From: an uncultured Melioribacter sp.
GTDB taxonomy: Bacteria > Bacteroidota > Ignavibacteria > Ignavibacteriales > Melioribacteraceae
Length of the DNA: 64,000 nucleotides
Assembly (NCBI GenBank): GCA_964572725.1
Contig: CAZNFW010000004.1
Span: 26,373-90,372 of the forward strand
Reading direction: 5' to 3'
Positions within the stretch are counted from its first letter, which is position 1. Every line of letters starts with the position of its first letter. Of the stretch, positions 10,038-54,276 are shown in pieces. A program made the translations under genes and the position numbers. The notes under the pieces were generated by a model that saw only the letters and a program-made list of their open reading frames with translations, ran no database searches and was not told the origin of the DNA.

Positions 10038-10175
10038 TAAATTATAAAACTAAAGAAAAACTAAAAACTTTCGATAATGTAAGTAAAGAATACTACTTTT
10101 CTTCCAGTTTCTACCAAATTATTGAACTAATTTATGTATTACTATTTTCTAAAAATTTTTGTCCCACTCATTGAA

Positions 10176-15275: not shown

Positions 15276-15340
15276 AAATCTCCAATAATTAATGGAAGGG
15301 TAAAATATTATTGATTTTACAGTTTAGAAACATTAAAAAA

Positions 15341-37077: not shown

Positions 37078-37092
37078 ATTAAAACCCCAGAT

Positions 37093-37437: not shown

Positions 37438-37445
37438 AATAACTC

Positions 37446-38816
37446 CTACTTAATTTCTATATTATATTTTTTTATTAAACGATACAAAGTTGCTCTTCCA
37501 ATTTTTAATTTTCTAGCTGCTTCAACCATATTCCTACCTGTTACTTTAATTGCATGGCGAATAGCAAGTTCTTCTAATTTTTCAATTGGAATTATTGGTG
37601 AATCATCTGAAAACAGAGCCGTTTTAGAATCAACAGCTATAGTTTGAGAAGTTATTGAAGGCGGAAGAACATCCACATCTATATAATCTCCATCAGTAAG
37701 AATCATACATCTTTCGAGAGTATTTTCAAGTTCACGAACATTTCCAGGCCAGTTATAATCATACATAAGTTTTAATGCACTTTTTGTTACGCCTTTAATA
37801 TTTTTGCCATGTTTTTGATTTAACTGTTTAATAAAGTGTTCTATTAAAACAACTATATCGGCTTTTCTTTCTCTTAATGGTGGAATATAAATAGGAAAAG
37901 AACTTAATCGATAATACAAATCTTCCCGAAAAAGTTTTTTATCGACACACTCTTTTAAATCTCTGTTTGTCGCAGAAATAATTCTCACATCTGTTTTAAT
38001 AATTTCGTTTCCTCCGACTCTTTCAAATTCTTTTTGCTGAATAACGCGAAGTATTTTTGCTTGAAGCGACATTTCCATTTCGCCAATTTCATCAAGAAAA
38101 ATTGTACCTCCATTTGCCAGTTCAAACTTCCCAATTTTTCTTTGATGTGCACCTGTGAATGCCCCCTTTTCATGACCAAATAATTCGCTTTCAAGAAGTT
38201 CTCTTGGTATTGATGCACAATTAACTACAACAAAAGGAGCATTTTTTCTTTTTCCATTATAATGGATTGCTCTGGCAATTAATTCTTTACCTGTTCCGCT
38301 TTCTCCCTGAATTAATACTGTTATATCATTATCAAGAACTTTCGAAACCATTCTGAAGGCTTCCTGCATTTTTTTATCTGCAGAAACAATGTTATCGAAG
38401 CTGTATTCTTTTTGAATATTTTCTTTCAGCTTTTTTAATTCTCGTTCTAGGTCATAATTCTTAATTGCATTTCTGATTGCAGATTCAAGTTTGCTTTTTT
38501 CAATAGGTTTAGGGAAATAATCAAAAGCTCCGAGTCTGATTGATTCAAGTGCAACTTCAATGCTCCCTTGTGCAGAAAGCATAATTACAGGCAATTGAGG
38601 ATTTTGTTGTTTTATCTTTACAAGCAATTCATTACCATTAATATCAGGCAGCATTATATCAAGCAAAATCAAATCTGGTTCTTCAGAAAGTGCTTCAATC
38701 ACGTCTGCGCCTGAAAGAAATGTTTTTACTTTGTAACCCCATTGGTTTTTACACCAATGTGTAAGCATTTTTAATATTGATTCTTCATCATCAACTATAA
38801 AAATTAATTTTTCCAA
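37446..38816 (-). CDS. Sigma-54-dependent response regulator (NtrC family: REC, AAA+, Fis-type HTH)
   Basis: It has REC (DLILLDIMLPDING), Walker A GESGTGKE, the sigma-54 contact loop GAFTGA, Walker B FLDEIGE, and the C-terminal HTH GRATLYRLIKK. Confidence 0.95.
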   Translation of the reverse strand: MEKLIFIVDDEESILKMLTHWCKNQWGYKVKTFLSGADVIEALSEEPDLILLDIMLPDINGNELLVKIKQQNPQLPVIMLSAQGSIEVALESIRLGAFDYFPKPIEKSKLESAIRNAIKNYDLERELKKLKENIQKEYSFDNIVSADKKMQEAFRMVSKVLDNDITVLIQGESGTGKELIARAIHYNGKRKNAPFVVVNCASIPRELLESELFGHEKGAFTGAHQRKIGKFELANGGTIFLDEIGEMEMSLQAKILRVIQQKEFERVGGNEIIKTDVRIISATNRDLKECVDKKLFREDLYYRLSSFPIYIPPLRERKADIVVLIEHFIKQLNQKHGKNIKGVTKSALKLMYDYNWPGNVRELENTLERCMILTDGDYIDVDVLPPSITSQTIAVDSKTALFSDDSPIIPIEKLEELAIRHAIKVTGRNMVEAARKLKIGRATLYRLIKKYNIEIK

Positions 38817-38831
38817 TTTACCCCTCTTAAG

Positions 38832-40727
38832 TTATTTGGGTAATCTAATGATAAATGTTGTTCCTTTGTTTTCTTCACTTTTTACTCTGATAATGCCTTT
38901 GTGCATATCTACAATTTGTTTTACGATTACAAGACCCATTCCTGCTCCAGATACAGGTGCATTTGGTCTGTATATTTTACTAAATTTTTGAAACAACTTT
39001 GGAATTTCCTTTTCGGGGATTCCTATACCTGTATCACTGATTGTAATCTCTGCCTCTTTGCCATAATCACTTATCATCAAGGAAATTCTTCCGCCATTTG
39101 GTGTATACTTAATTGCATTTGAAATAAGATTACTTAAAGCCTGTTTGATTCTTTTTTTATCGGCATAAATTTTTACTTCTTTTTCAGGATATTCTTTTGA
39201 TAAAACAATTTCTTTCTTTTTAATATCCTCAGAAAATTCTGCCGCAGTTTCATCCATAAGTTTTTTGATTTCAAATTCTTCTTTCTTTAATTCTTCTTCG
39301 CCAGTTTCAAGTTTTGAAAAATCAAGAACATCATTAATAATCTTAGCCAATCTTCTGCCTTCACTCAAAATTATTTCACTAAATTCTTTTATAGTTTCCC
39401 GTGGTAAATCTTCATCTGTTGCAATTGTTTCTGCAAAACCAACAACCGAAGCAAGCGGTGTTCTTAATTCATGTGAAATGTTTGATATAAATTCGCTCTT
39501 AAGTTTGCTTAATTCTTCAAGCAGACTAATCTTTTGACGTGCTCTTTCTCTTTCAATTGATATTATTCTGTTTGCTTCTATGAGTTTAGCATTCAAATCA
39601 CGAATTTTTTGTTCATCAATTTTTCTATTTGTAATATTCCTACCAATACCAATCATGCCAGAAACTTCGCCGTCAACTATCATAGGCTTTGAATGAATTT
39701 CAAATGTAATACTTTTGTCAAATCTGTCAACAAATGCAACTTCAAAAACAACTTTTTCTTGTGTAGTTAGTATTCTTGAAAAAGCTTCTGCAATTTTTTG
39801 TTCGTCTTCTTTATCTATAAAATCCAGAAAGTGTTTTCCAATCATTTCTTCTGGTTTATAACCAAGTGTATTAGCTCCATTTTTATTTACCATGTTAAAG
39901 TAACCAAATCCATTTAATATAAAAATCAAATCGTCTGCTGTATCTATCAGCATTCTAAATTTTTCTTCGGAGTTTTCAAGTTTAAGTCTTGTTATCTTTT
40001 CTTCTGTTATATCGAGAATTATTCCCACAATTCTAATAACATTCCCGCCTCTTAAAATTGGTATACCAGAATGCTTAACCCAGTGTTCTTTTCCAAATCT
40101 ATCTTTCATTTTATATTCTATAATAGAAGATTCGCCAGTTCTTAATTTTTCAATAAATTTTTTAAATGCTCCAAAATGTTCTTTTGCAATAGTTCTAAGA
40201 ATTAAAAATTTATTTTCATAAATTTCTTCGGGTGTAAATCCGAACAATTGTCTGACTGCCTCAGTAATAAAATAATATTCACTTCCATCTGCACTTGTAG
40301 AATACAGAACTGCTTGAATACTTCCAATTGATTCTTTTAATAATTGTTCTATTCCGATTTCTTTTGTAGCATCCGTAAATAACGAGATTACATAAGATTC
40401 ACTATTTTTTTCTGGTATAAACAATGAATTAACAATAAAAAATTTTTCTGAAGAATTTTTATCAATATATTTTAATCTAAAAATTGGAATGCTTTTTTCT
40501 TCTATTGCTGCTTTAATGAAAGGTAATTCTTGAAGTGATAATAAATTATTGCTTATGTCATAAAATTTTTCTTTGTTCCAGAAATTTATGCCGAAATTTT
40601 CGGGATTATCAAACAGATTTTTTAATTTACTGTTTGACACAATTTGTTTTGCTTTCGGGTAATTAATTAAAACAGGCGCATCAATTTCTTCAATAAGCTC
40701 TATAATATTTGTTGAACTATTAATCAT
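38832..40727 (-). CDS. Cytoplasmic multi-PAS sensor histidine kinase
   Basis: It has several PAS/PAC repeats, the H-box SHELRTPL, and ATPase boxes NAIKYT, DTGIGIP, GAGMGL. There is no TM segment. Confidence 0.9.
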   Translation of the reverse strand: MINSSTNIIELIEEIDAPVLINYPKAKQIVSNSKLKNLFDNPENFGINFWNKEKFYDISNNLLSLQELPFIKAAIEEKSIPIFRLKYIDKNSSEKFFIVNSLFIPEKNSESYVISLFTDATKEIGIEQLLKESIGSIQAVLYSTSADGSEYYFITEAVRQLFGFTPEEIYENKFLILRTIAKEHFGAFKKFIEKLRTGESSIIEYKMKDRFGKEHWVKHSGIPILRGGNVIRIVGIILDITEEKITRLKLENSEEKFRMLIDTADDLIFILNGFGYFNMVNKNGANTLGYKPEEMIGKHFLDFIDKEDEQKIAEAFSRILTTQEKVVFEVAFVDRFDKSITFEIHSKPMIVDGEVSGMIGIGRNITNRKIDEQKIRDLNAKLIEANRIISIERERARQKISLLEELSKLKSEFISNISHELRTPLASVVGFAETIATDEDLPRETIKEFSEIILSEGRRLAKIINDVLDFSKLETGEEELKKEEFEIKKLMDETAAEFSEDIKKKEIVLSKEYPEKEVKIYADKKRIKQALSNLISNAIKYTPNGGRISLMISDYGKEAEITISDTGIGIPEKEIPKLFQKFSKIYRPNAPVSGAGMGLVIVKQIVDMHKGIIRVKSEENKGTTFIIRLPK

Positions 40728-41976: not shown

Positions 41977-43200
41977 ATGGAAGCAAAATATAAAAATAAA
42001 CCCGAACTTTTAGCTCCTGCTGGCGACTGGAGTATGCTTAATGCAGCAATTAAAGCAGGTGCAAATGCAATTTATTTTGGTGTTGAAAGCCTTAATATGC
42101 GGGCAATGGCAAAAAATTTTGAACTCAAGGATTTGAGAGAAATTTCACAGATATGCAGAAAAAACAAAATTAAATCTCATCTTACACTAAACACTATAAT
42201 TTTTGAAAATGAACTTGATGAATTAGACAGAATTATTAGTGCTGCAAAAGAAAACGGAATTGATATGATAATTGGATGGGATTTAGCTGTACTTCAAAAA
42301 TGTAAAGAATATGATATGCCATTTTGTGTGAGCACACAGGCTTCGATTTCTAATTCTGAGGCTGCTAAATTCTATAAAAATCTTGGTGCAAAAAGAATAG
42401 TGCTTGCAAGAGAATGCACACTTGATAAAATTATCGAAATAAAAAACAAAGTTGATATAGAAATCGAAACATTTATACACGGAGCCATGTGCATAGCTGT
42501 AAGCGGCAGATGCTTTATGAGTCATGAAGTATTTAATAAAAGTGCTAATCGAGGAGAATGCCTTCAACCCTGCAGAAGAGAATATGAAATTTATGATAAA
42601 GACGAAAAATTTAGTTTAAGAATTGGGGATGGTTATGTTCTTTCTCCTAAAGATTTATGCACAATTGATTTCATTGACAAATTAATTGAAGCAAATATTG
42701 ATGCTTTCAAAATTGAAGGCAGAAAAAGAAGTCCTGAATACATTTACAAAGTTACATCCGTTTATAGAAATGCTATAGACTTATATTTCGAAAACAAATT
42801 AACAGATGAAATCAAACTAAAATTAACAGAAGAACTTTCAAAAGTTTATAACCGTGGATTTTCAAAAGGATTTTACTTTGGAACACCTGGAACAGAAGAT
42901 TTTGCTAACGCATACGGAAGCATTGCAACTACAAGAAAAATTTATGTGGGCAAAGTTTTAAACTATTACAAGAAAAACAAAATTGCTTACGTAAAAATTG
43001 AAGCTAACGATTTAAACATTGGTGATTCAATCTACATTATTGGCAATACTACTGGAGTGGTTGAATTAAAAATAGAAGAAATGATGCGGGAAGAAAATAA
43101 AATTATAAAAGCCGAAAAAGGATATGATATTACTTTCCCGTGCAAAGAACTTGTAAGAGAAAATGACAAGGTTTATAAAATTACTTCCACTCAAGCTTAG
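41977..43200 (+). CDS. Peptidase U32 family protein (collagenase-like / RNA hydroxylation-associated family)
   Basis: It has PELLAPAG and the U32 signature E.FIHGAMCIAVSGRCFMS. I prefer the ATG at 41977 over the TTG at 41968. Confidence 0.85.
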   Translation: MEAKYKNKPELLAPAGDWSMLNAAIKAGANAIYFGVESLNMRAMAKNFELKDLREISQICRKNKIKSHLTLNTIIFENELDELDRIISAAKENGIDMIIGWDLAVLQKCKEYDMPFCVSTQASISNSEAAKFYKNLGAKRIVLARECTLDKIIEIKNKVDIEIETFIHGAMCIAVSGRCFMSHEVFNKSANRGECLQPCRREYEIYDKDEKFSLRIGDGYVLSPKDLCTIDFIDKLIEANIDAFKIEGRKRSPEYIYKVTSVYRNAIDLYFENKLTDEIKLKLTEELSKVYNRGFSKGFYFGTPGTEDFANAYGSIATTRKIYVGKVLNYYKKNKIAYVKIEANDLNIGDSIYIIGNTTGVVELKIEEMMREENKIIKAEKGYDITFPCKELVRENDKVYKITSTQA

Positions 43201-43552
43201 GTTTTGAATTCATTATACCAAAACTTGCTAAAGCTTCATCAAGAGTTGAAAAAACCTTAAATACTTTGTCCATACGTGTGACCATAAAGACAAGCGAGGG
43301 AACATCTTTATTATAAACCAATCTCAAATCTCCTCCCAAAGAATTAACTTTCTTGAGCTGAGAAACTAAAGCACCCAAAAATGTTGAATCGATATATTCG
43401 CACAAAGTAAGGTCAATAATAATTTTTTTAATTCCTTCATTAATAACTTCTGTGACAAAATCTTTGAATTTTACAGCTTTTGTTAAAGTAGCTCTTGTTA
43501 AATAAATATGTATTACTGCTACATCTTTATATTTTTCAGTTTTAAATTCCAT
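43181..43552 (-). CDS. STAS-domain protein (anti-sigma-factor antagonist-like), copy 2
   Basis: 123 aa, paralogous to 37093..37437. Shared motifs are IDSTFLG, LKKV..LGGDL.LV and F.VF....A..SF. Confidence 0.8.
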   Translation of the reverse strand: MEFKTEKYKDVAVIHIYLTRATLTKAVKFKDFVTEVINEGIKKIIIDLTLCEYIDSTFLGALVSQLKKVNSLGGDLRLVYNKDVPSLVFMVTRMDKVFKVFSTLDEALASFGIMNSKPKLEWK

Positions 43553-43640
43553 AAACGAACAAAATTTTTTCTAATCTTAATATATAAATATTTGATTAGT
43601 TATGAAAATTATACGCTGCAATAAAGTTTCGAAACCTTTT

Positions 43641-43687
43641 AAAATAAAAAAGGCGAAGGGTATTGAAACTTGAACTTACCTTCGCCT
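43641..43687 (-). terminator. Strong intrinsic terminator (minus strand)
   Basis: On the minus strand the stem is aggcgaagg(ta) / (ta)cccttcgcct (9-12 bp, one bulged G), followed by ttttttatttt. The plus-strand reading has no U-tract. Confidence 0.7.
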
Positions 43688-43715
43688 CTTAAGGACGGAG
43701 CTTGTTTGTGTGTGT
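43641..43715 (-). ncRNA. Candidate ~75-nt sigma-54-dependent small RNA, or the terminated leader of the STAS-2 gene
   Basis: The predicted TSS is about 12 nt below the -12 GC. The transcript would read ACACACACAAACAAGCUCCGUCCUUAAG, then the terminator hairpin, then the U-tract. Confidence 0.35.
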
Positions 43716-43726
43716 ATAGCAACAAC

Positions 43727-43741
43727 GCAATTTAAGTGCCA
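43727..43741 (-). promoter_or_regulatory. Sigma-54 (-24/-12) promoter
   Basis: The minus strand reads TGGCACttaaaTTGC, an exact match to the TGGCAC-N5-TTGC consensus. It lies in an intergenic region, and two sigma-54 activators are encoded within 10 kb. Confidence 0.7.
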
Positions 43742-43845
43742 TTTATAAAAATGAAATTTTTCTAATATTTCACTGCATTATTATTTTATTTTATGCGAAT
43801 ATTTTTCGTGGCATCGGAAAATTATTCGGTCAATGTTTTGAAGAA

Positions 43846-44655
43846 TTAAAATGGAATTCTAATACTTAATTGAATTCCATTCTTAAACATCATAAATGAA
43901 TTTGACTCTGGATTTATAATTTCTTTCATGAAAATTTCATTATCATTAAAAAACAATAAATCAAGCTGACTATAAACCCACAGTGCAATGTAGGATATTA
44001 TTAAAATGTTTCTTGTTTTATATGATTTATTGTATAAATCATATTTCTGCTGAATCAACAAATTATCAACTTCATTCAAATAATCATTTTCTTTTTTGTT
44101 TGTATCGTAGATATAATAAACAGCAGCAGAAAGATTTATTAAAGAAAGAGCCCCGAGAAGTGAGCCTTTTGCTTTTAGACCGCAGGAAAATTGTCCTAAA
44201 CCGGGCAGAAAAATATTTCTTATTAAAGAATTTCTCAGAAGTGAATAATCAAAAAATTTCTGCTTTGAAATTTGCGTGCTATCAATCGGAATAGTTTCTG
44301 TTTTTAATGTATTGATAAAATCAACTTTTACCTGATTAAAAATTGTAATAAGCTTAGGAGATATTTTTGAAGGGTCAGCATTGTAGTCACTTTTTATCTT
44401 CAAAATTTCTTTGAAACTTTCTTTTGTTGAATCTTCAAAACCAAGTGTATAAAATGATACTGCTCTCATCAAATAAATGTCAATTAAAAGCGTATCGGGC
44501 AAAGATTTTTCTTTTAACAATACATTTGAATATTTAATTACATTTTCATATTCAAAAGAATCATATTCTCTTTTGACTTTTTCAAATGAGATTTCCTGAG
44601 CAAAAGTATTTAATGAATATAAAAACAATAAAAAGAAGAATATTTTTTTAATCAT
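43846..44655 (-). CDS. Hypothetical exported/membrane protein, with a TPR-like N-terminal half and a C-terminal membrane segment (possibly DUF5683-like)
   Basis: It has a signal peptide, helical repeats, and an FLPGLGQFSCG...LGALSL hydrophobic region. Its start overlaps the upstream gene by 4 nt (ATGA). Confidence 0.45.
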   Translation of the reverse strand: MIKKIFFFLLFLYSLNTFAQEISFEKVKREYDSFEYENVIKYSNVLLKEKSLPDTLLIDIYLMRAVSFYTLGFEDSTKESFKEILKIKSDYNADPSKISPKLITIFNQVKVDFINTLKTETIPIDSTQISKQKFFDYSLLRNSLIRNIFLPGLGQFSCGLKAKGSLLGALSLINLSAAVYYIYDTNKKENDYLNEVDNLLIQQKYDLYNKSYKTRNILIISYIALWVYSQLDLLFFNDNEIFMKEIINPESNSFMMFKNGIQLSIRIPF

Positions 44656-45941
44656 TTGAGAAGAACCATTTTTCTGGTTTGAATTAGATTATCTGTTTTC
44701 AAACATACAAAATAAATTCCTGCTGGAACTTCTTTGCCAAATTTATCTTTTCCATTCCAATCAATTGAATATCTTCCAGCATAAAGATTTCCATGTTTCA
44801 ATGTTATTATATGCTGACCAAGCAGAGAATAAATATCAAGTGAAACAGAAGAATATCTTGATAATTCAAATGAAATTGTTGTATTTGGATTAAAAGGATT
44901 AGGATAGTTCTGAAATAATACATCGGTTTTTGGCAGTTCATTTTTTTCTTCATTATCGGATTTAGTTGTAACAAGTGCAAGTTTTTCAAGATATGGAACA
45001 ATATTTCCATTTTCATCTCTTCCGCCAAAAACAACAATTGTATTTCCATAATTAATTGCCATTGGATTTCTTCTTGCATATTTAAGAGAGGGGAATGGAT
45101 AAACAAGAACTCTTCCATCACTTAAAATGTCAATTGCTTCAACGGACTTGAGAGCTCTATCGGTTTCATTAAAACCGCCAATTATAAAACCTCTTTTTAA
45201 TACAGAATTGTAAATAGCCACTCCTCCGGCTCGGGGAGTTAAAAGTTTTTGCGGCAGTTCTTCTATTTTATTTTTAGCAATATCAAATTTATTAATTGAA
45301 GAAAGAGCACCATTTAAAATTCCACCAAAAATATAAATGTTATTATCAAGAAGAATACTCATCTGCTGCTTTGGCTGATTTTGACTTGTGGTTCCGTAAG
45401 TAAAATTTATTTTTTTGTTTATTAAATCATATCCAATAATATAAGGAAGTTCTGCAGCTCCGCTCGGGATAGGTTCACCTCCTATAACATACAACAAATT
45501 ATTTTTTATATATCCAGTAGAAAAAGCTCTTGCAAAATTATCCTGAGTATCAAAAACAATAGGATCAGATGGAATCGATTTATAATTCCATGATTCCATA
45601 ATATTTTTTTCCTGAGAAAACTCACTTACTCCGCCAAAATATAGAATTTGCGACTGCCATATGTTTGCCACAAACAAATATCTCGGCTGATTCATTTTGC
45701 CAACAATTTTCCATTCACCCGAAAGAATATTGTATTCCTGAATCCAGTCAACAACTTCTTTTGAAGAATTTTCTCCACCAAGTACATAAAATTTATTGCT
45801 AACTGTATCGTATACAACCTGGCCTCCCGAAACAGGAAACTTCATATCCCATCCGGTTACAACCTGCCATTCCCAATTCTGTGCAAGAATTGGCAGGGCA
45901 AATAATATCAATATGGTAAAAATTTTTCTTCTCATACTCAC
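44652..45941 (-). CDS. Secreted Kelch-repeat beta-propeller protein with a T9SS C-terminal sorting domain
   Basis: It has a signal peptide and repeated ...YV.GG... / W..V Kelch-like blades. The C-terminus is NYPNPFNPNTTISF...GIYFVCL. Confidence 0.8.
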   Translation of the reverse strand: MSMRRKIFTILILFALPILAQNWEWQVVTGWDMKFPVSGGQVVYDTVSNKFYVLGGENSSKEVVDWIQEYNILSGEWKIVGKMNQPRYLFVANIWQSQILYFGGVSEFSQEKNIMESWNYKSIPSDPIVFDTQDNFARAFSTGYIKNNLLYVIGGEPIPSGAAELPYIIGYDLINKKINFTYGTTSQNQPKQQMSILLDNNIYIFGGILNGALSSINKFDIAKNKIEELPQKLLTPRAGGVAIYNSVLKRGFIIGGFNETDRALKSVEAIDILSDGRVLVYPFPSLKYARRNPMAINYGNTIVVFGGRDENGNIVPYLEKLALVTTKSDNEEKNELPKTDVLFQNYPNPFNPNTTISFELSRYSSVSLDIYSLLGQHIITLKHGNLYAGRYSIDWNGKDKFGKEVPAGIYFVCLKTDNLIQTRKMVLLK

Positions 45942-45974
45942 CTCTTTCTAATGTATAGGACAACTTCTATACCA

Positions 45975-47528
45975 TCATTTTTCCTTTAATACAAATTTAA
46001 GTTGAATAGTATCTCCCTGTTTAATATAAAAACTTGTATCAATATCCCGATAATTTGGATTTTTAACAGATAATCTCACAAAACCGGGAAAAACTCTTAT
46101 TAATTCTTTCATAGGAGTTTGACCTTTGAAATCCCCGTTTACATAAATGTTACCCCACGGATTAACTTTGCAATTTATATATCCCATCAACGATTCAAGT
46201 GAAACTTTTAAGTTTGTTACCTGCGAATGATTTATTTTAATAACTTCAGAATAAATTGGATAGTCGGGATGAACTAATTTAACAGTGTGTTCTCCTTCTG
46301 TTAAAGTTAATGGTTTGGTCATTGGTGTAGTTTCAAGTTTTTCTCCATCAACATAAACATCAGCCCATGGGAAACATTCAACAAATAATCCTCCATATTT
46401 AAGTGTAGTTATCTCAGCAGCTCTATTTGTTTGATTCTCTGTTGTTTGAGCAGCAATCAAACTGGAATCATTTTTATCACCGGGTGATAGTTTTTCCCTC
46501 TGTGCAACTTTTTCTTTTGCCGGTTCATTTTTTTGTTGATTTATCTTTTGTTCAGATGGCAAAGCTTTTTTTAATTGTATTTGATTTAAGAAAACAGTCA
46601 GCGCTATTAATAGAACTATTAAAGCAACCCCCGAAATAATAATCTTTGTCTTTCTTCTATTGTAGTTTACATCTTTGCTCAAAGAAATTGTCAATTGTTC
46701 TGGTTGAACATTTAATTCATTTAATACTTCAAGTGCAGAATTATAGCGAAACGCAGGTTTTTTCTTTAAAAGACGAATAATAATTTGTCTAATTTCTTCT
46801 GATATTTCACTCAGTCCTTCAATAATACTGTTTTCATTGTAAGACATTATTTCGTTTAAAGTAAGAGTAACATTTTCTTTTAAGAATGGGTTTTTTCCTG
46901 TAAACATTTCATATATCACAACGCCTGCGGAAAACAAATCACTTTGATAAGTTAGTTTTGCTCCTGCTACCTGTTCTGGCGACATGTAACTGGGCGTTCC
47001 AACAATTGAATAAGGACTTGTCACAAAATTATCTTCTGCAGAGAGTGCCAGTCCAAAATCACCCAGTTTTAAGTTCATGTTATTGTCAATAAAAATATTT
47101 TCTGGTTTTATATCTCGATGAATAATTTTATTTGAATGAGCAAAATGAATGGCTTTGAAAAGTTGTATTGTTAAAAGTTTTTTTTCTTCATAAGAAAGAT
47201 TTCGGTGTTTTAATAAATTTCTTAAACTTTCGCCTTCAATGTATTCAAATGAAATGTAGAAATATTCTTTGCTTGTTCCAAAATCGAGAACTTTAATAAT
47301 ATTAGGATGGTCAAGTTTTGCAAGTAATTTTGCTTCACGTTTGAATCTTTCGATTAATGTTTGGTCAGATATTTTTTCTGTATTAAGGACTTTCAGAATA
47401 ATTTTTTTATTTAGATAAATATGATTGGCAAGATAAACTGCAGCGTGTTCATCTTTTTTGAGTACATCAAGAATTTCAAACTTCTCGAATAATATTTCTG
47501 TTGAACTAAGCATCGTTTTGCTGTTCAC
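45975..47528 (-). CDS. Hanks-type Ser/Thr protein kinase with a TM helix and extracytoplasmic PEGA domains
   Basis: It has the catalytic loop HRDIKPENI, DFG, and an SPEQ (APE-like) motif. A TM helix IIISGVALIVLLIALTVFL follows, then two PEGA-like repeats (VYVDGEKLETTP, IYVNGDFKGQTP). Confidence 0.9.
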   Translation of the reverse strand: MNSKTMLSSTEILFEKFEILDVLKKDEHAAVYLANHIYLNKKIILKVLNTEKISDQTLIERFKREAKLLAKLDHPNIIKVLDFGTSKEYFYISFEYIEGESLRNLLKHRNLSYEEKKLLTIQLFKAIHFAHSNKIIHRDIKPENIFIDNNMNLKLGDFGLALSAEDNFVTSPYSIVGTPSYMSPEQVAGAKLTYQSDLFSAGVVIYEMFTGKNPFLKENVTLTLNEIMSYNENSIIEGLSEISEEIRQIIIRLLKKKPAFRYNSALEVLNELNVQPEQLTISLSKDVNYNRRKTKIIISGVALIVLLIALTVFLNQIQLKKALPSEQKINQQKNEPAKEKVAQREKLSPGDKNDSSLIAAQTTENQTNRAAEITTLKYGGLFVECFPWADVYVDGEKLETTPMTKPLTLTEGEHTVKLVHPDYPIYSEVIKINHSQVTNLKVSLESLMGYINCKVNPWGNIYVNGDFKGQTPMKELIRVFPGFVRLSVKNPNYRDIDTSFYIKQGDTIQLKFVLKEK

Positions 47529-49005
47529 CCATCTCTTTTAATTTTAGTTGAATCCATCGAACTGAAACATCAAGTGATTTTGCAGTTAATGTTCTATTGC
47601 CATTAAATTCTTCAAGACGTTTTTTAAGCAGCAGCAATTCAAATTCTTTAAGTGTTCCTTTGAAATTCATTAAGTCCTGATTATCTTCAAGAATTATATG
47701 TTCTGCATAAATTTTATCAGAATCACATAAAATAAGTGCTCTCTGAATTACATTTATTAGCTGACGAACATTACCGGGCCAATAATAACTTTCCATTTTT
47801 TTGATTGCAGAAGAATCTATAGGAATATTTTTTTTCGCAATCTTTTTAACAAAGTAGCTTGCAAGCAATGGAATATCTTCCCGTCGTTCTCTCAATGGCG
47901 GCATTTTAATCGGAAATACATTTAACCTGTAAAACAAATCTTCTCTAAATTGACCTTCTTTAGTAAGCGCATTTAAATCTTTATTTGTAGCTGCAATTAT
48001 TCTTACATCTACTTTTTTTACTCTTGTATCGCCAAGACGAATTATCTCGCGGTTTTCAAGAACTCTTAAAAGTTTTGCCTGAAGTGCATTTGAAATATCA
48101 GCAATTTCATCAAGGAAAAATGTCCCTCCATCTGCAGCTTCAATCAAACCTTGTTTGTCTGTGTTTGCTCCAGTAAAAGCTCCTTTCTTATATCCAAACA
48201 GCTCACTTTCAAGGAGACTATCCGGGATTGAACCGCAAAACTGAGCAAGAAATGGTTTGTCTTTTCTTCTGCTTAATTGATGAATTGCACGTGCAGCAAC
48301 TTCTTTTCCCGTTCCGCTTTCTCCAGTTATTAAAACTGTTGCATCTGTTTGTGCAACTTTATGAATTAACTTTGTTAGATTTTGAATGGCGGTGCTGTTG
48401 CCAACCATTTCAGGAATAATTTCAGAGGATTGAAGTTTATTGGTTAATATTCTGTTTTCTTTTTCTAATTCTTCGAGTTTTATTATTCTGTCTAATGTTA
48501 AAGATACAAGATTCGAAAAGAAGTTTAAGAAAATTAAATTCTCTTCTGTAAATTCACGTCGGTCTAATGTGCTGTCCGCAATAATTACTCCCCAGACTTT
48601 GTCGTCACGCATTATAGGAACACCAATTACAGATTTAATTCTATGAATTTGCACGCTCTGAAATTGTGATAAATTTGGGTCGCCCATTACATCGTGATAT
48701 AAAAGCGGCCGTTTTTCTTTGATTACTTTTTGAAGAATTCCTGAAGAAAATTGATTCAGGTCAGTTATGCTTTCATTTGAAATTTTTCTTGCTGTTATAA
48801 TTGAAAAACTATCTGTTGCCTCATCGTATTTTACAAATAAACCTCGTTCTGCATTGATAATTTTTATTACGATATCAATTACATCTTCTATAAAAGATTC
48901 TTGATAACTCGATGAGTTAAGAAGTTGACTGAATTCAAAGAGTGCTTCAAATTCTTCTTTAGAGAGATTTTTTATGTAATTAATATTTTCTGGTATAAAT
49001 TTCAT
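47506..49005 (-). CDS. Sigma-54-dependent transcriptional activator with an N-terminal GAF domain
   Basis: It has a GAF-like N-terminus, Walker [22 protein letters not shown], and a C-terminal HTH. Its stop overlaps the kinase gene start by 23 nt. Confidence 0.9.
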
Positions 49006-49020
49006 GATTAATCTCTGAAA

Positions 49021-50967
49021 TTATTTTACCGTAAATGTTCCCGGTTTTGAAATTGAACTATTTCCAAAATCATCTATACAAATTACAACCCAGAAATAAT
49101 CACCCGCAGGCAAAGTTATGTCGCATGTTGTTTCAGTTGCATCTTTCGAAATATTTTTTTTCTCCCAAACTAAAATTGGAGCGGTTTCATCTGTGTAAAC
49201 CTGAACTGCATATTTAAAATTGAATCCCGGACTAAATTTTTTCCAGACGAATGTAGGACTGCTGCTTACCACAGCTCTATTAACTGGTGAATCAATTATA
49301 ATTTCTTGTGTAATTAGTCTTTTAATATTAGATGACCCAATTGTAAATATTCTTCCCGATTTATCTTTTGCTACAATTGTAAAATCTGTACCAATTGCAT
49401 CTTCGATGGAGTTTATCTTTAAATCTATTGTTCTGAAATTATTTTCATATTTGTTTGTTTCTAAATTGTAGATTAATCTCTTATAAAAATTTAATGAATT
49501 GTTTTTAACAAAAACTGTATCAACATCATTTTCATCATCAGCAATTGTTGCTTGAACATAAAGTCTTTGAACCTGAATATCAGGATATCTGTTCTGAACC
49601 GTTGTAAAAATTGAAAGTTCTGTTAAACGCGGATCAGCATTCAAGAATCTGTCGTCTATTTGTTTAACAGGTCGATTATCAAATTGAACAAAAACAGAAT
49701 CTTTGCTGTAACCGTCTTTCTCAAAATAAAGCCATCCGTTATTTTGAACTACATTGTCTAATTGGTATTTTCCTGCAGCATCCGTTTGAGTAATCATTGA
49801 TTGATTTTTCCAAAATACTTTTACATTTGGAATTACTCTGCGCGGCAGTGCTACTGTTTTAACATAACCTAAAATTGTAGCTGTAGTATAACTCAAAGTC
49901 CTATCGCTCATTCTTAAAGAGTTTTGACCATTCCAGCTTACATAAACTGAATCTTTTTTGAATCCATATTTTTCGAAATAAAGCCATCCATCTTTTATAG
50001 AAACATTTTGAAGTTTATAATAACCGCTCGAATTTGTTTCGCTGAAAATATTTTGATTTTTCCATAAAACTTTAACATCCTTCAAAGGATTTCGTGAAAT
50101 ATCATAAACAAATCCATCAATCGTTCCAATTGTGTAATAAAGAATTACTTCATTAACTCTTATTGTTTTTTGATTATTCCATCTAACATAAACAGAATCT
50201 TTGGCAAAGCCGTCCTTTTCAAAATAAAGCCATCCATCATTCATAGAAATATTTTCCAGTTTATAATAACCTTCATAATTTGTTTGCACAAGAATATTTT
50301 GATTCTTCCAGAAAACATTTACATTTGACAAAGCTGAACGGGGAACAGCATAAACAAATCCATCAAGTGTTCCAATAGTTGGATATAAAATTACATCAGA
50401 AATATGTTTGACTTCTTCATTATTCCACTCAACAAAAAAAGAATCGCGGGATAATCCTTCCTTTTCAAAATAAAGCCATCCATCATTCATAGAAATATTT
50501 TCCAGTTTATAATAACCATCGGAATTTGTTTCAGCAAAAACCTTCTGATTTTTCCACAAAACTCTTACATTTTCAACAGCATTTCTTGGAACTGTGTAAA
50601 CATATCCATCAAGCTGACCACGAGTATAACTTAAAATGAATTCTTGCAAATGTTTTATTTTTTGATTATTCCATTCCACATAAATAGAATCTTGTGATAA
50701 TCCTTCTTTTTCAAAAATTAACATCCCATCTTTCATTTGAATATTTTCAATTCTGAAATAACCTTGAGAATTGGTTAGTGCAAAAACATTTTGATTTTTC
50801 CAGATTACTTTTACACCTGCTAAAGCAGCACGATTAGAAGATAAAACATAACCGTCAATTAAACCCAATTTATTGTTAGGATTTCGAGAATCAAGCAGAT
50901 TTAATCTTGGTGCATCACAAGATATTATACCCAGAAGAGTCAGTATTATCAGTAATATTTTTTTCAT
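49021..50967 (-). CDS. Lipoprotein with five tandem 82-aa carboxypeptidase-regulatory-like repeats and an Ig/FN3-like C-terminal region
   Basis: It has the lipobox LLGIISC. Five units match the pattern xDG(Y/F)V....V.V.WKNQ....TN..GYYKLENISMNDGWLYFEK.G...DS.YV.WNN. Confidence 0.7.
   Translation of the reverse strand: MKKILLIILTLLGIISCDAPRLNLLDSRNPNNKLGLIDGYVLSSNRAALAGVKVIWKNQNVFALTNSQGYFRIENIQMKDGMLIFEKEGLSQDSIYVEWNNQKIKHLQEFILSYTRGQLDGYVYTVPRNAVENVRVLWKNQKVFAETNSDGYYKLENISMNDGWLYFEKEGLSRDSFFVEWNNEEVKHISDVILYPTIGTLDGFVYAVPRSALSNVNVFWKNQNILVQTNYEGYYKLENISMNDGWLYFEKDGFAKDSVYVRWNNQKTIRVNEVILYYTIGTIDGFVYDISRNPLKDVKVLWKNQNIFSETNSSGYYKLQNVSIKDGWLYFEKYGFKKDSVYVSWNGQNSLRMSDRTLSYTTATILGYVKTVALPRRVIPNVKVFWKNQSMITQTDAAGKYQLDNVVQNNGWLYFEKDGYSKDSVFVQFDNRPVKQIDDRFLNADPRLTELSIFTTVQNRYPDIQVQRLYVQATIADDENDVDTVFVKNNSLNFYKRLIYNLETNKYENNFRTIDLKINSIEDAIGTDFTIVAKDKSGRIFTIGSSNIKRLITQEIIIDSPVNRAVVSSSPTFVWKKFSPGFNFKYAVQVYTDETAPILVWEKKNISKDATETTCDITLPAGDYFWVVICIDDFGNSSISKPGTFTVK
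49630..50859 (-). repeat. Intragenic tandem repeat, five copies of 246 nt
   Basis: The period is 246 nt. An identical 58-nt block, ccttttcaaaataaagccatccatcattcatagaaatattttccagtttataataacc, occurs at 50214-50271 and again at 50460-50517. Confidence 0.85.
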
Positions 50968-51010
50968 TTTATAATGAATTAAATCAATTATAAAAATAAA
51001 CTATTTGTGC

Positions 51011-51035
51011 AAATTTTTCGTAGTGCGAAAAATTT
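51011..51035. other. A/T-rich perfect hairpin or palindrome between the phzF-like gene and the repeat-lipoprotein operon
   Basis: The arms aaatttttcg and cgaaaaattt flank a tagtg loop. This could be the terminator of the nad operon or an operator for the downstream operon. Confidence 0.3.
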
Positions 51036-51105
51036 TTTGTGTAAATATGCTTATATTTTTTAAAATAAAGTAGATTCAAATTAAAAGAAATTTTGGGAAA
51101 GCGAT

Positions 51106-52456: not shown

Positions 52457-53392
52457 TTAGACAATTGAAAGCATTCGTTCAATTGAAAGTCTTGCTTTTT
52501 GTGCTACTTCTTCTGGTACTTTTACTTCATATAATTCATTCAACAAAGAATAATATAATTTTTCCAATGTTATCATCTTCATGTATTCACAAACTGCATT
52601 TTCACTTAAAGGATAAAATTTTGCCTCCGGTCTTACTTTTCTTAATCTATGAAGAATGCCAACTTCTGTTGCAATTACAAATTCATTTGCTTTAGAATTT
52701 GTAACATGTTTAATCATTCCTTCCGTGGAATAAATATGAATATTTTTGCAATCAAAATAGAGCTGGGATTTCAACATGCATGAAGACGAACATCCACATT
52801 CAGGATGAATTAAAAATTCAGCATCGGGATGTTCATTTCTTGCATCATCAAAACTTATATCACCAATTTTTTCATGAACATGACAGGCACCGTTCCATAT
52901 TTCAATTTCCCTGCCTGTTACAGTGCTTACATATAATCCCAAGAATTTGTCTGGAAGGAATAATATTTTTTTGTTTTCAGGAATTGCCTGAACAACTTTA
53001 ACTGCATTTGAAGATGTAACACAATAATCACTTTCTGCTTTTACTTCTGCAGTTGTATTGACATAAGAAACAACGACATAATCCGGGTGCTCTTCTTTCC
53101 ATTTTTTAAGTTGTTCTGCATTAATTGTTGAGGCAAGCGAACACCCTGCTTCTAAATCCGGGATAAGAACTTTTTTATCAGGAGAAATAATTGAAGCTGT
53201 TTCTGCCATAAAATGGACACCGCAGAAAACAATTATATCTGCTTTTGTTTTTGCTGCTTGCTGCGATAAGCCAAGTGAATCACCCACAAAATCTGCTAAA
53301 TCCTGTATTTCAGGAATTTGATAATTATGAGCAAGTATAACAGCATTTTTTTCTTTTCTTAATTTATTTATTTCATTTATTAAATCGTTCAT
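52457..53392 (-). CDS. nadA: Quinolinate synthase
   Basis: 311 aa. It has AHNYQ, VHFMAETA and HPEC motifs, with the Cys ligands of the NadA 4Fe-4S cluster. Confidence 0.95.
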   Translation of the reverse strand: MNDLINEINKLRKEKNAVILAHNYQIPEIQDLADFVGDSLGLSQQAAKTKADIIVFCGVHFMAETASIISPDKKVLIPDLEAGCSLASTINAEQLKKWKEEHPDYVVVSYVNTTAEVKAESDYCVTSSNAVKVVQAIPENKKILFLPDKFLGLYVSTVTGREIEIWNGACHVHEKIGDISFDDARNEHPDAEFLIHPECGCSSSCMLKSQLYFDCKNIHIYSTEGMIKHVTNSKANEFVIATEVGILHRLRKVRPEAKFYPLSENAVCEYMKMITLEKLYYSLLNELYEVKVPEEVAQKARLSIERMLSIV

Positions 53393-53413
53393 CTTTGTCT
53401 CACTGATTTTGCA

Positions 53414-54253
53414 TTAAATATTTTGTATTTTCATACTGATATCAAGAGCCCTGACTGAATGAGTAATAGCTCCAACCGAAATAAAATCAACTCCGGTTAA
53501 TGCAATTTTTCTTACATTTTCAAGTGTTACATTTCCCGAGGCTTCAACTAGAGCTTTGCCATCAATTAATTTAACTGCTTGTTCCATCAATTCTACGGTC
53601 ATATTATCAAGCATAATAATATCAACTTTATTCGATAATGCTTCTTTGACTTCCTCAAGATTTGTAGTTTCTACTTCAATCTTCATCTTTTTTTTAAGTT
53701 TTTTTCTTATTATATGAACAGCATTGGTAATACTTCCAGCAGCTTTAATATGATTATCTTTGATTAACACCATATCGTAAAGTCCAAAACGATGATTTGT
53801 TCCTCCTCCCGCCTTAACAGAATATTTGTCAAGCATTCTTAAGCAGGGAACGGTTTTGCGAGTATCAAGAATCTTTGTATTTAATCCTTCAAGTTGAGCT
53901 ATAAATTTTGCTGTTAATGTTGCAATCCCGCTCATTCTTTGTAAAAAATTTAGTGCCGTCCGTTCACCCGTTAATAAATCTCTAAGTGAACCTTTTACTT
54001 CTGCTATCTTAGTGTTTTTAGATACTTTATCACCATCATTAATAAATTTTTTAAAAGTAATTTTATTATCCAGTTTTTTGAATACCTCTTTAGCTACATT
54101 CAATCCAGCAATTACCCCATCTTCTTTGACAAAGATTTCTGCAATTCCTTTTTGAAAATCTGGCACAATCAAATTGGTGGTTACATCACCGCTTCCGATA
54201 TCTTCTTTTAATGCCAAATTAATTATTCGAACTAATTCTTTTTTGTTAATCAT
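53414..54253 (-). CDS. nadC: Nicotinate-nucleotide pyrophosphorylase (carboxylating)
   Basis: 279 aa with EDIGSGDVT, ERTALNFLQ, TRKT, IKDNH and MLDNM motifs. Confidence 0.95.
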   Translation of the reverse strand: MINKKELVRIINLALKEDIGSGDVTTNLIVPDFQKGIAEIFVKEDGVIAGLNVAKEVFKKLDNKITFKKFINDGDKVSKNTKIAEVKGSLRDLLTGERTALNFLQRMSGIATLTAKFIAQLEGLNTKILDTRKTVPCLRMLDKYSVKAGGGTNHRFGLYDMVLIKDNHIKAAGSITNAVHIIRKKLKKKMKIEVETTNLEEVKEALSNKVDIIMLDNMTVELMEQAVKLIDGKALVEASGNVTLENVRKIALTGVDFISVGAITHSVRALDISMKIQNI

Positions 54254-54276
54254 TTTCTTATAAAATTTTTTTGAAA

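Follow-up and report, generated by a model that had tools for sequence, protein, structure and literature searches.

A conserved envelope-signaling gene cluster in Melioribacteraceae with a predicted small RNA as its probable sigma-54-dependent output

We analyzed a 64-kb stretch of DNA (the window) from an uncultured Melioribacter sp. Comparison with related loci suggests that a region within it is probably a conserved envelope-signaling module of a non-two-component type, and that its transcriptional output in Melioribacteraceae is a small regulatory RNA. The module pairs a sigma-54 enhancer-binding protein (EBP) with a Hanks-type kinase and exported proteins, and a sigma-54 promoter follows its last gene.

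A packed operon with a four-gene core

The region opens with five genes packed into positions 43846-50967, with coordinates exactly as given in the initial annotation:

49021..50967 (-): gene 1, lipoprotein with five CarbopepD_reg_2 repeats (ORF, Pfam, translation)
47506..49005 (-): gene 2, GAF - AAA+ (GAFTGA) - HTH sigma-54 EBP (ORF, Pfam)
45975..47528 (-): gene 3, Hanks-type Ser/Thr kinase with one TM helix and two extracytoplasmic PEGA domains (ORF, Pfam)
44652..45941 (-): gene 4, secreted Kelch beta-propeller with T9SS C-terminal sorting domain, accessory (Pfam/NCBIfam)
43846..44655 (-): gene 5, signal peptide, TPR-like periplasmic domain, PGLGQ motif and two-helix membrane hairpin (AlphaFold2 model)

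The ORF calls place the junctions, from gene 1 to gene 5, at +15, -23 (overlap), +33 and -4 (overlap) nt, the 23 nt being shared by the EBP and kinase reading frames, which backs the earlier proposal of a single transcription unit. The five genes are co-directional, and no terminator separates gene 5 from the downstream small RNA (sRNA) block. The gene identities first proposed are also borne out, by Pfam (PEGA, Kelch, CarbopepD_reg_2, GAF and Sigma54_activat were all found) and, for gene 5, by an AlphaFold model. The order lipoprotein C-terminal part, EBP, kinase, (Kelch), gene 5 is kept in loci L001-L021, which span Ignavibacteriales, Calditrichota (including Caldithrix abyssi) and other MAGs, and in L081-L088. 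The suggested five-gene synteny therefore holds in part: a four-gene core is conserved in relatives, but the Kelch gene is not constant. It is absent from L004, 6, 7, 12, 15, 16, 18, 20 and 21 and from L085, 95, 102, 109, 117, 123 and 124, so that about half of the distant loci and several close ones lack it. Judged by gene order, the conserved unit is the lipoprotein C-terminal part, EBP, kinase and TPR-like membrane protein, and the Kelch protein is an accessory member.

The lipoprotein has a lipobox (IIS|C) at its N-terminus, as read from the translation, and its CarbopepD_reg_2 repeats (five, 1.7e-39) are mirrored in the DNA by a 246-bp tandem repeat of 3.6 copies (49922-50815). Its conserved beta-rich C-terminal region covers about 290 aa, and distant loci keep only residues ~360-648. 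Gene 4 matches Kelch repeats and Por_Secre_tail. Gene 5 matched no Pfam or NCBIfam family; its AlphaFold model (pLDDT 80.6) has a short TPR-like helical N-domain and the two-helix membrane hairpin, with small TPR proteins as the best Foldseek matches, all weak (E >=0.16). Those of its homologs that are named are all "hypothetical protein," most are unnamed, and one has DUF5683.

The EBP carries GAF, Sigma54_activat (7e-71) and AAA_lid_14, and its HTH_8 match falls below threshold (20.9 bits, cut-off 22); GAFTGA and Walker A/B are legible in its sequence, and its identity across Melioribacteraceae is about 80%. Some sources name its homologs "Nif-specific regulatory protein," and the domain order is that of NifA-type GAF EBPs. 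We reject assignment to NifA: the protein falls under all NCBIfam equivalog cut-offs (for nifA, 400 bits against 529), no nif genes lie nearby, and the probable target is the sRNA or T9SS cargo.

The kinase matches Pkinase (2e-55) and two PEGA domains (9.5e-15) with the TM helix in between. The initial annotation had raised possible degeneracy of its catalytic residues. The VAIK-Lys, alphaC-Glu, HRD, Asn, DFG and SPE residues are all kept, but the Gly-rich loop is fully degenerate and reads LKKDEHAAVY instead in all orthologs. With no glycine left in this P-loop, the kinase may not bind ATP or be catalytically active. Nothing in either sequence marks the EBP, a GAF protein that lacks both FHA and receiver domains, as a substrate of the kinase; phosphorylation of the EBP by the kinase is purely our conjecture.

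A sigma-54 promoter, candidate enhancer sites and a predicted small RNA

Past the last stop codon, and ahead of gene 1, we mapped the following features:

51007..51038 (no strand): possible autoregulatory site, variant dyad ...TTTTTCGCAC / ACGAAAAATTTGCAC, about 47 nt ahead of the gene 1 ATG
43816..43828 (no strand): distal candidate upstream activator site (UAS) dyad GGAAAATTATTCG, one mismatch to CGAA-N5-TTCG (pattern, relatives)
43796..43808 (no strand): proximal candidate UAS dyad CGAATATTTTTCG, centered about -87 from the predicted start (pattern, relatives)
43727..43741 (-): sigma-54 promoter TGGCAC-N5-TTGC (-24/-12), TGGCACTTAAATTGC (pattern match, conservation)
43642..43715 (-): predicted ~74-nt sRNA, with an unstructured 5' part ACACACACAAACAAGCUCCGUCCUUAAG, terminator hairpin and U-tract (sequence, fold, covariance model)
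43640..43690 (-): intrinsic terminator, stem GGCGAAGG / CCUUCGCC with a 19-nt loop, then UUUUUUAUUUU (fold)
43181..43552 (-): STAS anti-sigma-factor antagonist (Pfam/NCBIfam; syntenic with the sRNA)

A pattern search of the 64 kb agrees with the initial annotation that the only consensus promoter lies at 43741: TGGCACTTAAATTGC is the sole exact TGGCAC-N5-TTGC, and its first base is 105 nt from the stop codon at 43846. An exact match in one window is by itself not beyond chance, so the significance of the promoter rests on its conservation in relatives. A metagenome scan by DNA pattern, blind to protein information, recovered 39 true loci and, together with genome loci, gave 43 unique sRNA homologs. 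The promoter is present in all of them as T(38/43)GGC(42/43)A[C/T]-N5-TTG, 11-13 nt ahead of a CA run. Its core, GG-N10-G, is kept at a fixed distance in 43/43, while spacer and flanks drift freely; the -12 element is TTGC in only 22, TTGA in 11 and TTGT in 10. In the distant loci (Ignavibacteriales, Calditrichota and others), TGGCA[CT] recurs past gene 5 in 15/15 cases, at 88-500 nt and on the same strand (background, 0.25 per kb), with lineage-specific dyads ahead. By this comparison the link from operon to promoter is well supported.

The two dyads lie about 40-60 bp past the last stop, 20 bp apart, with the promoter about 55 bp further; they are the only such dyads in the whole window. Their spacing of exactly 20 bp is the same in 13 related loci, and a CGAA-N5-TTCG dyad occurs 60-220 bp upstream in 37/41 related loci (30 exact), a density of 4.6 per kb against a background of 0.29 per kb (16-fold). 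The half-site tracks the EBP recognition helix: VSVRW[IV]Q goes with CGAA, ISLRSLQ with ATGCAA or ATGAA, and VSLRWLQ with TGCAAC, a co-variation that spans about four phylogenetically non-independent lineages. The variant dyad ahead of gene 1, to which TGCGAAAAATTTGCGCA in L081, L082, L108 and L116 is similar, suggests autoregulation, on weaker evidence than that for the UAS.

What does this promoter transcribe? The predicted product begins 12 nt after the -12 element with a highly conserved, unstructured, (CA)n-rich 5' half; the block has no start codon and stops short of the STAS gene. Its terminator folds at -16.5 kcal/mol (z = -4.15), with a stem of 9-12 bp plus a U-run. A gene 5 homolog directly precedes the sRNA in 46/46 loci with room. 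There is one copy per locus, and in the window the covariance model finds a single match (43638-43716, 83 bits). Among the metagenome matches, the invariance of GUCCUUAA and the terminator stem is partly imposed by the search pattern. RNAalifold recovers the terminator alone, with almost no covariation and a single compensatory change, C-G to U-A, in L081. The sRNA matches no Rfam family, and neither the 64-kb window nor the operon's own mRNA offers a conspicuous target. The window's locus was not found in any RNA run examined; for a related locus, the only metatranscriptome contigs found span the STAS gene, not the sRNA. The predicted product is most likely a regulatory RNA of ~74 nt that has not been described before, and not an mRNA. 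The earlier proposal that the promoter is the module's output is strongly backed as regards the promoter itself, which follows gene 5 in all Melioribacteraceae and 15/15 distant loci, but it missed the probable product, a terminated non-coding RNA ahead of STAS.

Alternative readings of the locus

It is tempting to view the "sRNA" as a 5' leader of STAS, with the terminator overridden by attenuation or antitermination and the anti-sigma antagonist as output. STAS is next on the same strand in 40/41 loci, STAS adjacency and the RNA co-occur only in Melioribacteraceae, and a weak four-segment layout (AAGG...CCUU...GAAGG...CCUUC) could permit 2:3 pairing. However, the terminator is strong, with no conserved alternative structure predicted, and where the RNA is conserved it lacks structure, as an aptamer would not. 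Between terminator and STAS ATG lie 84 to 365 nt of unrelated sequence, depending on the locus, and past the terminator STAS is preceded by a conserved promoter-like motif of its own, TTTTCTATT-N12-14-ATTCATATATT (scored in the relatives, with the window left out). L001 carries the RNA and no STAS. We consider the leader reading unlikely. The block could also be simply the operon's 3' UTR and terminator, the promoter sequence having arisen by chance: since no terminator follows gene 5, operon read-through must stop at the sRNA hairpin, and one exact match per 64 kb is not significant alone. Yet the GG-N10-G core with TGGCA[CT] holds its distance in 43/43 loci while neighboring bases drift, dyads sit at enhancer distance with helical phasing, and the promoter-after-gene-5 rule extends to 15/15 distant loci with a different downstream product, which makes a chance origin very improbable.

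Another operon encodes a possible competing activator:

38832-40727: PAS histidine kinase, operon partner of the NtrC-type EBP (Pfam)
37446..38816 (-): NtrC-type response-regulator EBP (Pfam)
37093-37437: second STAS of this operon (Pfam)
35929-37077: REC-PP2C phosphatase of this operon (Pfam)

If this response regulator, under its histidine kinase, activated the promoter, the five-gene cluster would merely lie upstream. It is a complete EBP including HTH_8, all Melioribacteraceae (and they alone) have it in synteny about 5 kb downstream of the RNA, and known sigma-54 sRNAs are as a rule under two-component control. However, 15/15 distant loci keep dyad and sigma-54 promoter after gene 5 with the NtrC-type system absent within 10 kb, the dyad sequence follows the GAF-EBP recognition helix, and a related dyad lies ahead of the GAF-EBP operon, with none found near the histidine kinase/response regulator operon. 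Control by the NtrC-type protein is unlikely.

Known systems and proposed mechanism

Sigma-54 promoters activated by an adjacent EBP are familiar from Qrr/LuxO (Vibrio) and GlmY/GlrR (Enterobacteria), whose products are short sRNAs of the Hfq type that combine a conserved single-stranded seed with a hairpin at the end. LuxO autoregulates, both LuxO and GlrR are receiver-domain EBPs that receive their input from phosphorelays, and Qrr genes are present in several copies. The present sRNA, in contrast to Qrr, is single copy, with a CA-repeat 5' end, no known chaperone and a presumed Hanks-kinase input. Myxococcus FHA-domain EBPs were reportedly linked to Ser/Thr kinases by Jelsbak et al. in 2005; there, as in the present proposal, Hanks-type rather than histidine kinases would feed sigma-54 activators. 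Those EBPs bear an FHA phosphopeptide-binding domain, whereas ours has GAF and no FHA, and the present kinase differs in its PEGA ectodomains and conserved non-glycine P-loop.

Two sigma-54 sRNAs encoded just downstream of an EBP gene provide precedents. NrsZ of Pseudomonas aeruginosa, after ntrC, also directly follows an operon encoding its presumed EBP and has a TGGCAC-N5-TTGC-type promoter, upstream activator sites and a terminated non-coding product (PMC4253122). However, it shares no sequence or Rfam relationship with the present sRNA, is about 226 nt with three repeated stem-loops and is processed (PMC4253122), its activator is a phosphorylated receiver-domain two-component protein rather than a GAF EBP paired with a Hanks kinase, and its host belongs to a phylum other than Ignavibacteriota. 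Pxr of Myxococcus xanthus, from a lineage rich in Ser/Thr kinases, likewise holds a conserved intergenic position just after an EBP gene, nla19, with its own sigma-54 promoter and enhancer site; it is not homologous, folds into three stem-loops where ours has a single-stranded 5' half and terminator, and Nla19 is a response regulator (PMC5568312).

In the mechanism we favor, the periplasmic PEGA domains, lipoprotein and TPR-like membrane protein (joined by the Kelch T9SS protein in loci that have it) would report the state of the envelope or surface, and the co-translated transmembrane kinase would set the activity of the cytoplasmic GAF EBP. The EBP would bind the dyads as enhancer and open the sigma-54 promoter via ATP hydrolysis; through the variant dyad before gene 1 it may also autoregulate the operon. 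The sRNA would act in trans through its single-stranded 5' region (ACACACACAA..., CUCCGUCCUUAAG), of which CUCCGUCCUUAAG is anti-Shine-Dalgarno-like, on mRNAs or an RNA-binding protein. In the distant loci (other Ignavibacteriales, Calditrichota), the promoter after gene 5 usually drives a large T9SS cargo gene, and because this same-position promoter serves T9SS cargo in sister lineages, the sRNA targets are plausibly envelope or T9SS-cargo genes. The module would then have an sRNA as its output in Melioribacteraceae and usually a T9SS cargo gene in more distant relatives.

The operon and its conserved core

The five minus-strand ORFs lie exactly where the initial annotation placed them, and its domain calls were each borne out by searches against Pfam and NCBIfam. 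The junctions from gene 1 to gene 5 measure +15, -23, +33 and -4 nt.

Genes of the operon, with Pfam and NCBIfam assignments
49021-50967, minus strand: gene 1, lipobox followed by five CarbopepD_reg_2 repeats
47506-49005, minus strand: gene 2, the enhancer-binding protein (EBP), GAF - Sigma54_activat (GAFTGA present) - HTH_8
45975-47528, minus strand: gene 3, the kinase, Pkinase, one TM helix and two PEGA domains
44652-45941, minus strand: gene 4, Kelch repeats and a T9SS Por_Secre_tail
43846-44655, minus strand: gene 5, no family match

Taken one by one, these parts are ordinary gene content; the initial annotation had singled out their combination. The finding is real and the order is kept in relatives, but the interpretation as a five-gene set holds only in part. 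In orthologous loci from a genome scan (L001-L021), tblastn recovered the lipoprotein (only its C-terminal ~290 aa is retained in distant orthologs), the EBP, the kinase and gene 5. Loci with this order come from Ignavibacteriales, Calditrichota (among them Caldithrix abyssi) and some unclassified FCB MAGs. Roughly half of these loci have the Kelch gene and the others lack it, as do several close relatives, which makes Kelch an accessory to a conserved unit of four genes. Across the Melioribacteraceae, the region as a whole runs PhzF, gene 1, EBP, kinase, (Kelch), gene 5, the predicted RNA described below, STAS (an anti-sigma-factor antagonist gene) and, on the other strand, a U32 peptidase. 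A minus-strand NAD biosynthesis cluster (52457-55851; nadB-like FAD oxidase, nadC and nadA), an ordinary housekeeping context, lies upstream of the PhzF-like gene. The locus was also found in DNA runs from subsurface and hot-spring metagenomes. One scan locus, L019 (JBQVMC010000143.1), is a 2.8-kb contig labelled as a Methanosarcinaceae archaeon MAG that carries bacterial lipoprotein and GAF-EBP genes (63% identity); the contig most likely reached that MAG through contamination during binning.

The CarbopepD_reg_2 modules of the lipoprotein are encoded by a tandem DNA repeat at 49922-50815 (246 bp, 3.6 copies, 75% identity). The lipoprotein is 488-650 aa long in close relatives, so the repeat number is evolving. 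For the C-terminal domain, a PDB sequence search gave only weak matches to adhesin Ig-like domains, and single-sequence AlphaFold gave no usable model (pLDDT 39). Gene 4 encodes a T9SS cargo protein with a type A CTD (TIGR04183, 41.7 bits against a cut-off of 23), with a signal peptide read from the translation. Gene 5 has no Pfam match even at E = 10 and no PDB sequence match. Its AlphaFold model, built with 43 homologs (pLDDT 80.6), combines a short N-domain of TPR-like fold with a long two-helix hairpin and carries a conserved PGLGQ motif, and Foldseek matched it to small TPR proteins alone, with weak E-values. Fold and matches together make "TPR-like membrane protein," the name used in the initial annotation, a fair label.

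Gene 2 is a bacterial EBP, with a Sigma54_activat AAA+ domain (Pfam, 7.4e-71), Walker A and B motifs and GAFTGA; it has a GAF domain, and FHA and receiver domains are absent. HTH_8 scores 20.9 bits, slightly below the cut-off of 22, and the HTH is kept in orthologs. The protein shares 93-95% identity with those of Melioribacter MAGs, and identity across the Melioribacteraceae is about 80%; an exact-protein lookup found no identical copy on record. We rejected NifA as an identity, as the TIGR01817 equivalog score is 399.7 bits against a cut-off of 528.85, and the source name of the homologs, "Nif-specific regulatory protein," is not supported for the same reason. At every locus, the EBP and kinase genes overlap or adjoin, which argues for coupling of the two.

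The initial annotation had allowed that the kinase might prove inactive, with catalytic residues degenerate on proper alignment. These residues are all intact and invariant in the orthologs: the Lys of the VAIK position (IILKVL), the alphaC Glu (FKREA), HRDIKPEN, DFG, and SPE at the APE position. The glycine-rich loop GxGxxGxV, however, is fully replaced; residues ~22-31 read LKKDEHAAVY, with no glycine. The replacement, [LI]KKDxHxxV[YF], occurs in every ortholog from Melioribacteraceae to Calditrichota, thus in two phyla, and a nonorthologous neighboring kinase in another locus (L024) retains the glycine loop (IGEGGMAQ). Judged by these residues, the PEGA kinase with this loop is a distinct kinase subfamily. 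Its catalytic residues are invariant and therefore, strictly, not degenerate; kinase activity should still not be assumed.

Promoter, candidate enhancers and a predicted small RNA

The initial annotation had noted a sigma-54 promoter 105 nt past the gene 5 stop as the only consensus match in the window, and so it is: TGGCACTTAAATTGC at 43741-43727 (minus strand) is the only exact TGGCAC-N5-TTGC, with GG at -24 and G(C) at -12, 10 nt apart. All 43 close loci and all 15 distant loci retain GG and the -13 G; the -12 C occurs in only 22 of the 43. Among the 43 unique loci, the promoter takes the form T(38/43)GGC(42/43)A[C/T]-N5-TTG[C22/A11/T10], with spacer and flanks that vary freely. A CA run begins 11-13 nt past the motif in these loci, a fixed distance that would place the start site at or just before the run. 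RpoN was not among the Pfam-scanned window proteins, which cover about half of the large ORFs. A one-mismatch site, TGGAACTAATATTGC (TGGAAC-N5-TTGC; 18704-18718, plus strand), lies inside an ORF of the opposite strand, and we treated it as a chance match rather than a promoter on account of that location.

As read from the sequence, a sigma-54 promoter here would have both a cognate GAFTGA AAA+ activator and enhancer sites ~80-150 bp upstream. The candidate sites are CGAA-N5-TTCG dyads between the gene 5 stop and the promoter.

Candidate enhancer dyads, with centers relative to the predicted start
43796-43808: proximal dyad, CGAATATTTTTCG, exact, center about -87
43816-43828: distal dyad, GGAAAATTATTCG, center about -107, 20 bp from the proximal dyad

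These are the only two such dyads in 64 kb (at most one mismatch, A/T spacer). A dyad lies within 300 bp upstream of the promoter in 37 of 41 unique loci from relatives (30 of them exact), at 16 times the background density, and paired dyads are always exactly 20 bp apart (13 cases). A variant dyad, ACGAAAAATTTGCAC adjoining TTTTTCGCAC, sits about 47 nt 5' of the gene 1 ATG and recurs in four relatives as TGCGAAAAATTTGCGCA. This suggests autoregulation, on weaker evidence than that for the promoter dyads. Separately, in eight loci (L001, L002, L085, L091, L092, L102, L107 and L117) a dyad-like aTGAAAATTTTTCG falls on the predicted start of the gene 1 ortholog, over the start codon and the codons that follow it (MKIFR); it could be a chance effect of the coding sequence or an EBP site that extends over the start.

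Past the -12 element come twelve bases, after which the minus strand reads ACACACACAAACAAGCUCCGUCCUUAAGA, GGCGAAGG-(19 nt)-CCUUCGCC and UUUUUUAUUUU. The predicted product of the promoter is an RNA of ~74 nt, running roughly from 43715 to 43642. Its terminator hairpin folds at -16.5 kcal/mol (z = -4.15 against shuffles) and was missed by a generic terminator scan, which allowed loops of up to 8 nt, solely because its loop is longer. The RNA stretch contains no start codon and lies about 95 nt from the STAS gene (43552-43181), with unrelated sequence in between. The block has its own promoter, an intrinsic terminator, no ORF and conserved intergenic sequence, and we consider it very likely that it is a sigma-54-driven small RNA (sRNA) gene. 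Rfam 15, which includes Qrr, GlmY/Z and CrcZ, gave no match in the whole window at the gathering score. At a permissive E-value, it gave nothing credible in 43400-43900, where the best match overlapping the RNA was STnc40, at 19 bits against 45.

The same block was seen 3' of gene 5 in six relatives (L001, L002, L081, L082, L085 and L087). We also scanned metagenome contigs by DNA pattern only (GTCCTTAA, 2-4 nt, GGYGAAGG, 5-25 nt, CCTTCRCC), with no protein constraint. This yielded 40 loci (39 true and one GC-rich false positive), and together with the genome loci gave 43 unique RNA sequences. The RNA lies directly 3' of a gene 5 homolog in 46/46 loci with enough flank and 5' of STAS in 40/41, with a single copy at each locus, the window included. 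The scan forces conservation of the bases in its own pattern, but places no constraint on the promoter, the U-tract or the 5' (CA)4-5 run. RNAalifold supported the terminator alone, with one compensatory change (C-G to U-A, in L081), and found no other structure; a possible small 5' hairpin (AAGG...CCUU) was not consistently supported. The 5' ~35 nt are best read as single stranded. A covariance model (R1) found no diverged copy in the distant orthologous loci, so the RNA is confined to a Melioribacteraceae-type clade.

Among the sequencing runs searched, none of RNA contained the window locus. Groundwater metatranscriptome contigs on one related locus (L096) covered the STAS gene and not the sRNA. 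At 7668-7745 of that locus, an 81-nt unitig from run X17 lies exactly over the sRNA at 2-3 times the k-mer depth of its flanks. We did not take this depth as expression, and attribute it to identical RNA sequence across co-occurring strains with differing flanks. No target was found for the RNA in the 64 kb. Duplex folding of its 5' half against 51 window start regions and the whole operon/STAS transcript gave best energies of -13 and -17 kcal/mol, no better than shuffled RNAs, and a search for UG-rich complements stayed at chance level.

Control of the promoter and competing readings

In the distant loci, TGGCA[CT] occurs on the same strand 88-500 nt past the gene 5 stop in 15/15 cases, against a background of 0.25 per kb per strand, and a lineage-specific dyad lies between gene 5 and the promoter. 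In most of these loci, the promoter precedes a gene for a secreted protein of 634-1026 aa. Five such proteins that we translated (L011, L012, L018, L020 and L021) have the look of CarboxypepD_reg-type repeats and a T9SS-type sorting end (NYPNPFNP...K), and match the gene 4 T9SS domain by tblastn. By this comparison, the operon-to-promoter link is older than the RNA. Three Ignavibacteriales loci among them have a promoter with an unusual TGGx at -12, no long ORF after it, and terminator-like hairpins 330-620 nt downstream (L003 ~15280-15620, L004 ~14120-14740 and L006 ~14150-14400), so their output may be other noncoding RNAs or small ORFs.

The dyad half-site tracks the recognition helix of the EBP. 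VSVRW[IV]Q occurs with CGAA...TTCG; ISLRSLQ, in the Caldithrix group, with ATGCAA...TTGCAT or ATGAA...TTCAT; and VSLRWLQ with TGCAAC...TTGCA. This co-change, in a few lineages only, is the strongest indication available that the dyads would be read by the GAF EBP rather than by another activator, and the GAF EBP is probably the activator of the sRNA promoter. A second candidate activator is encoded 5 kb downstream, in another signaling operon.

Second signaling operon, 35929-40727, minus strand
38832-40727: PAS histidine kinase
37446-38816: NtrC-type REC-sigma-54 activator (response regulator)
37093-37437: STAS protein
35929-37077: REC-SpoIIE/PP2C phosphatase

Together with the STAS gene at 43181-43552, this operon resembles a partner-switching module that is wired to a two-component system. 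We saw no anti-sigma kinase. The NtrC-type EBP is syntenic in the Melioribacteraceae, which would suit a role at the sRNA promoter, but in distant loci that retain dyad and promoter it is not found within 10 kb, and we think it unlikely to be the activator.

Two further readings concern the RNA itself. That it might be a leader of STAS is suggested by their tight synteny and by a weak 2:3 pairing that can be drawn by eye. However, the terminator is strong and the sole structure predicted, the spacer varies from 84 to 365 nt, and L001 has the RNA without STAS. STAS also has its own promoter-like motif downstream of the terminator, TTTTCTATT-N12-14-ATTCATATATT (second half also given as ATTCATATATTGA), which lies 32-53 nt 5' of its ATG and is conserved (L095-L124; e.g., L107 ~10040-10075). 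A leader function therefore seems improbable. As the block follows gene 5 with no terminator in between, operon read-through must end at the same hairpin, with the RNA as its 3' end; that the block is merely the 3' untranslated region of the operon is nonetheless very improbable, as the conserved promoter argues for an independent start.

We return to an independent sRNA under the GAF EBP. The gene order, promoter, dyads, terminated noncoding product (as read from sequence) and their conservation are the ground for a mechanism whose steps we infer with decreasing confidence. Most confidently, the GAF EBP would bind the phased dyads and activate the sigma-54 promoter. The RNA may then act in trans through its single-stranded 5' half, with the CA run or CUCCGUCCUUAAG pairing with mRNA start regions; its CUCC and CCUUA elements are anti-Shine-Dalgarno-like, and the window start regions show GGAG as the ribosome-binding site of this organism. 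With less confidence, the PEGA kinase, lipoprotein and TPR-like membrane protein would sense envelope state and set EBP activity. The sequence holds no sign that the kinase phosphorylates the EBP, and its control of the sRNA promoter is a tentative proposal, somewhat below an even chance. Least confidently, and by analogy with sister lineages, the targets could be envelope or T9SS-cargo genes. We lean toward this explanation as a whole, at somewhat better than even odds.

Relation to known systems and significance

Qrr/LuxO and GlmY/GlrR are sRNAs of the EBP-sigma-54 layout, and sigma-54 sRNAs beside activator genes (Qrr, GlmY, NrsZ and Pxr) are central switches in Proteobacteria; all known ones are, to our knowledge, fed by phosphorelays. 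The order of EBP operon, enhancer, sigma-54 promoter and sRNA is common to this locus, NrsZ and Pxr. NtrB/C and RpoN induce NrsZ, which is located between ntrC and PA5126 (PMC4253122); Pxr, downstream of nla19, has a sigma-54 promoter and an enhancer site of its own (PMC5568312). In contrast to all four systems, the RNA here is very simple, with a CA-repeat head and no sequence or Rfam relationship to them, and it accompanies a GAF EBP and a Hanks kinase instead of a two-component system, in another phylum.

Literature searches (Melioribacter or Ignavibacteria with sigma-54 or sRNA; PEGA kinases with EBPs) returned nothing on the module or on Ignavibacteria sRNAs, and neither these nor Rfam turned up a described regulatory RNA in the phylum. 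As far as we found, the cross-phylum hard-wiring of the module to a single sigma-54 promoter, with a T9SS cargo gene replaced by a new sRNA family, is undescribed. The most far-reaching reading, which we hold at just short of an even chance, is that a kinase/GAF-EBP module with a lipoprotein and a TPR-like protein, found in at least two phyla (Ignavibacteriota and Calditrichota), is tied firmly in cis to a single sigma-54 promoter, and that in Melioribacteraceae its output was switched from a T9SS surface protein to a (CA)n-headed RNA. This would be the first described sRNA family of the phylum and a sigma-54 sRNA run by a Ser/Thr kinase in place of a two-component system.

The locus offers a clean candidate sRNA family with at least 43 unique sequences, and a testable triplet of enhancer, promoter and activator for an uncharacterized signaling module that is widespread in the FCB superphylum. 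It would also be a natural case of output rewiring, from protein gene to sRNA, at a fixed promoter position, and it points to a kinase family with intact catalytic residues and no glycine-rich loop. If the kinase-to-EBP link is true, it would broaden the view of envelope sensing by sigma-54 systems and fit the suggestion that the bacterial exterior is under sigma-54 control (PMC3162934).
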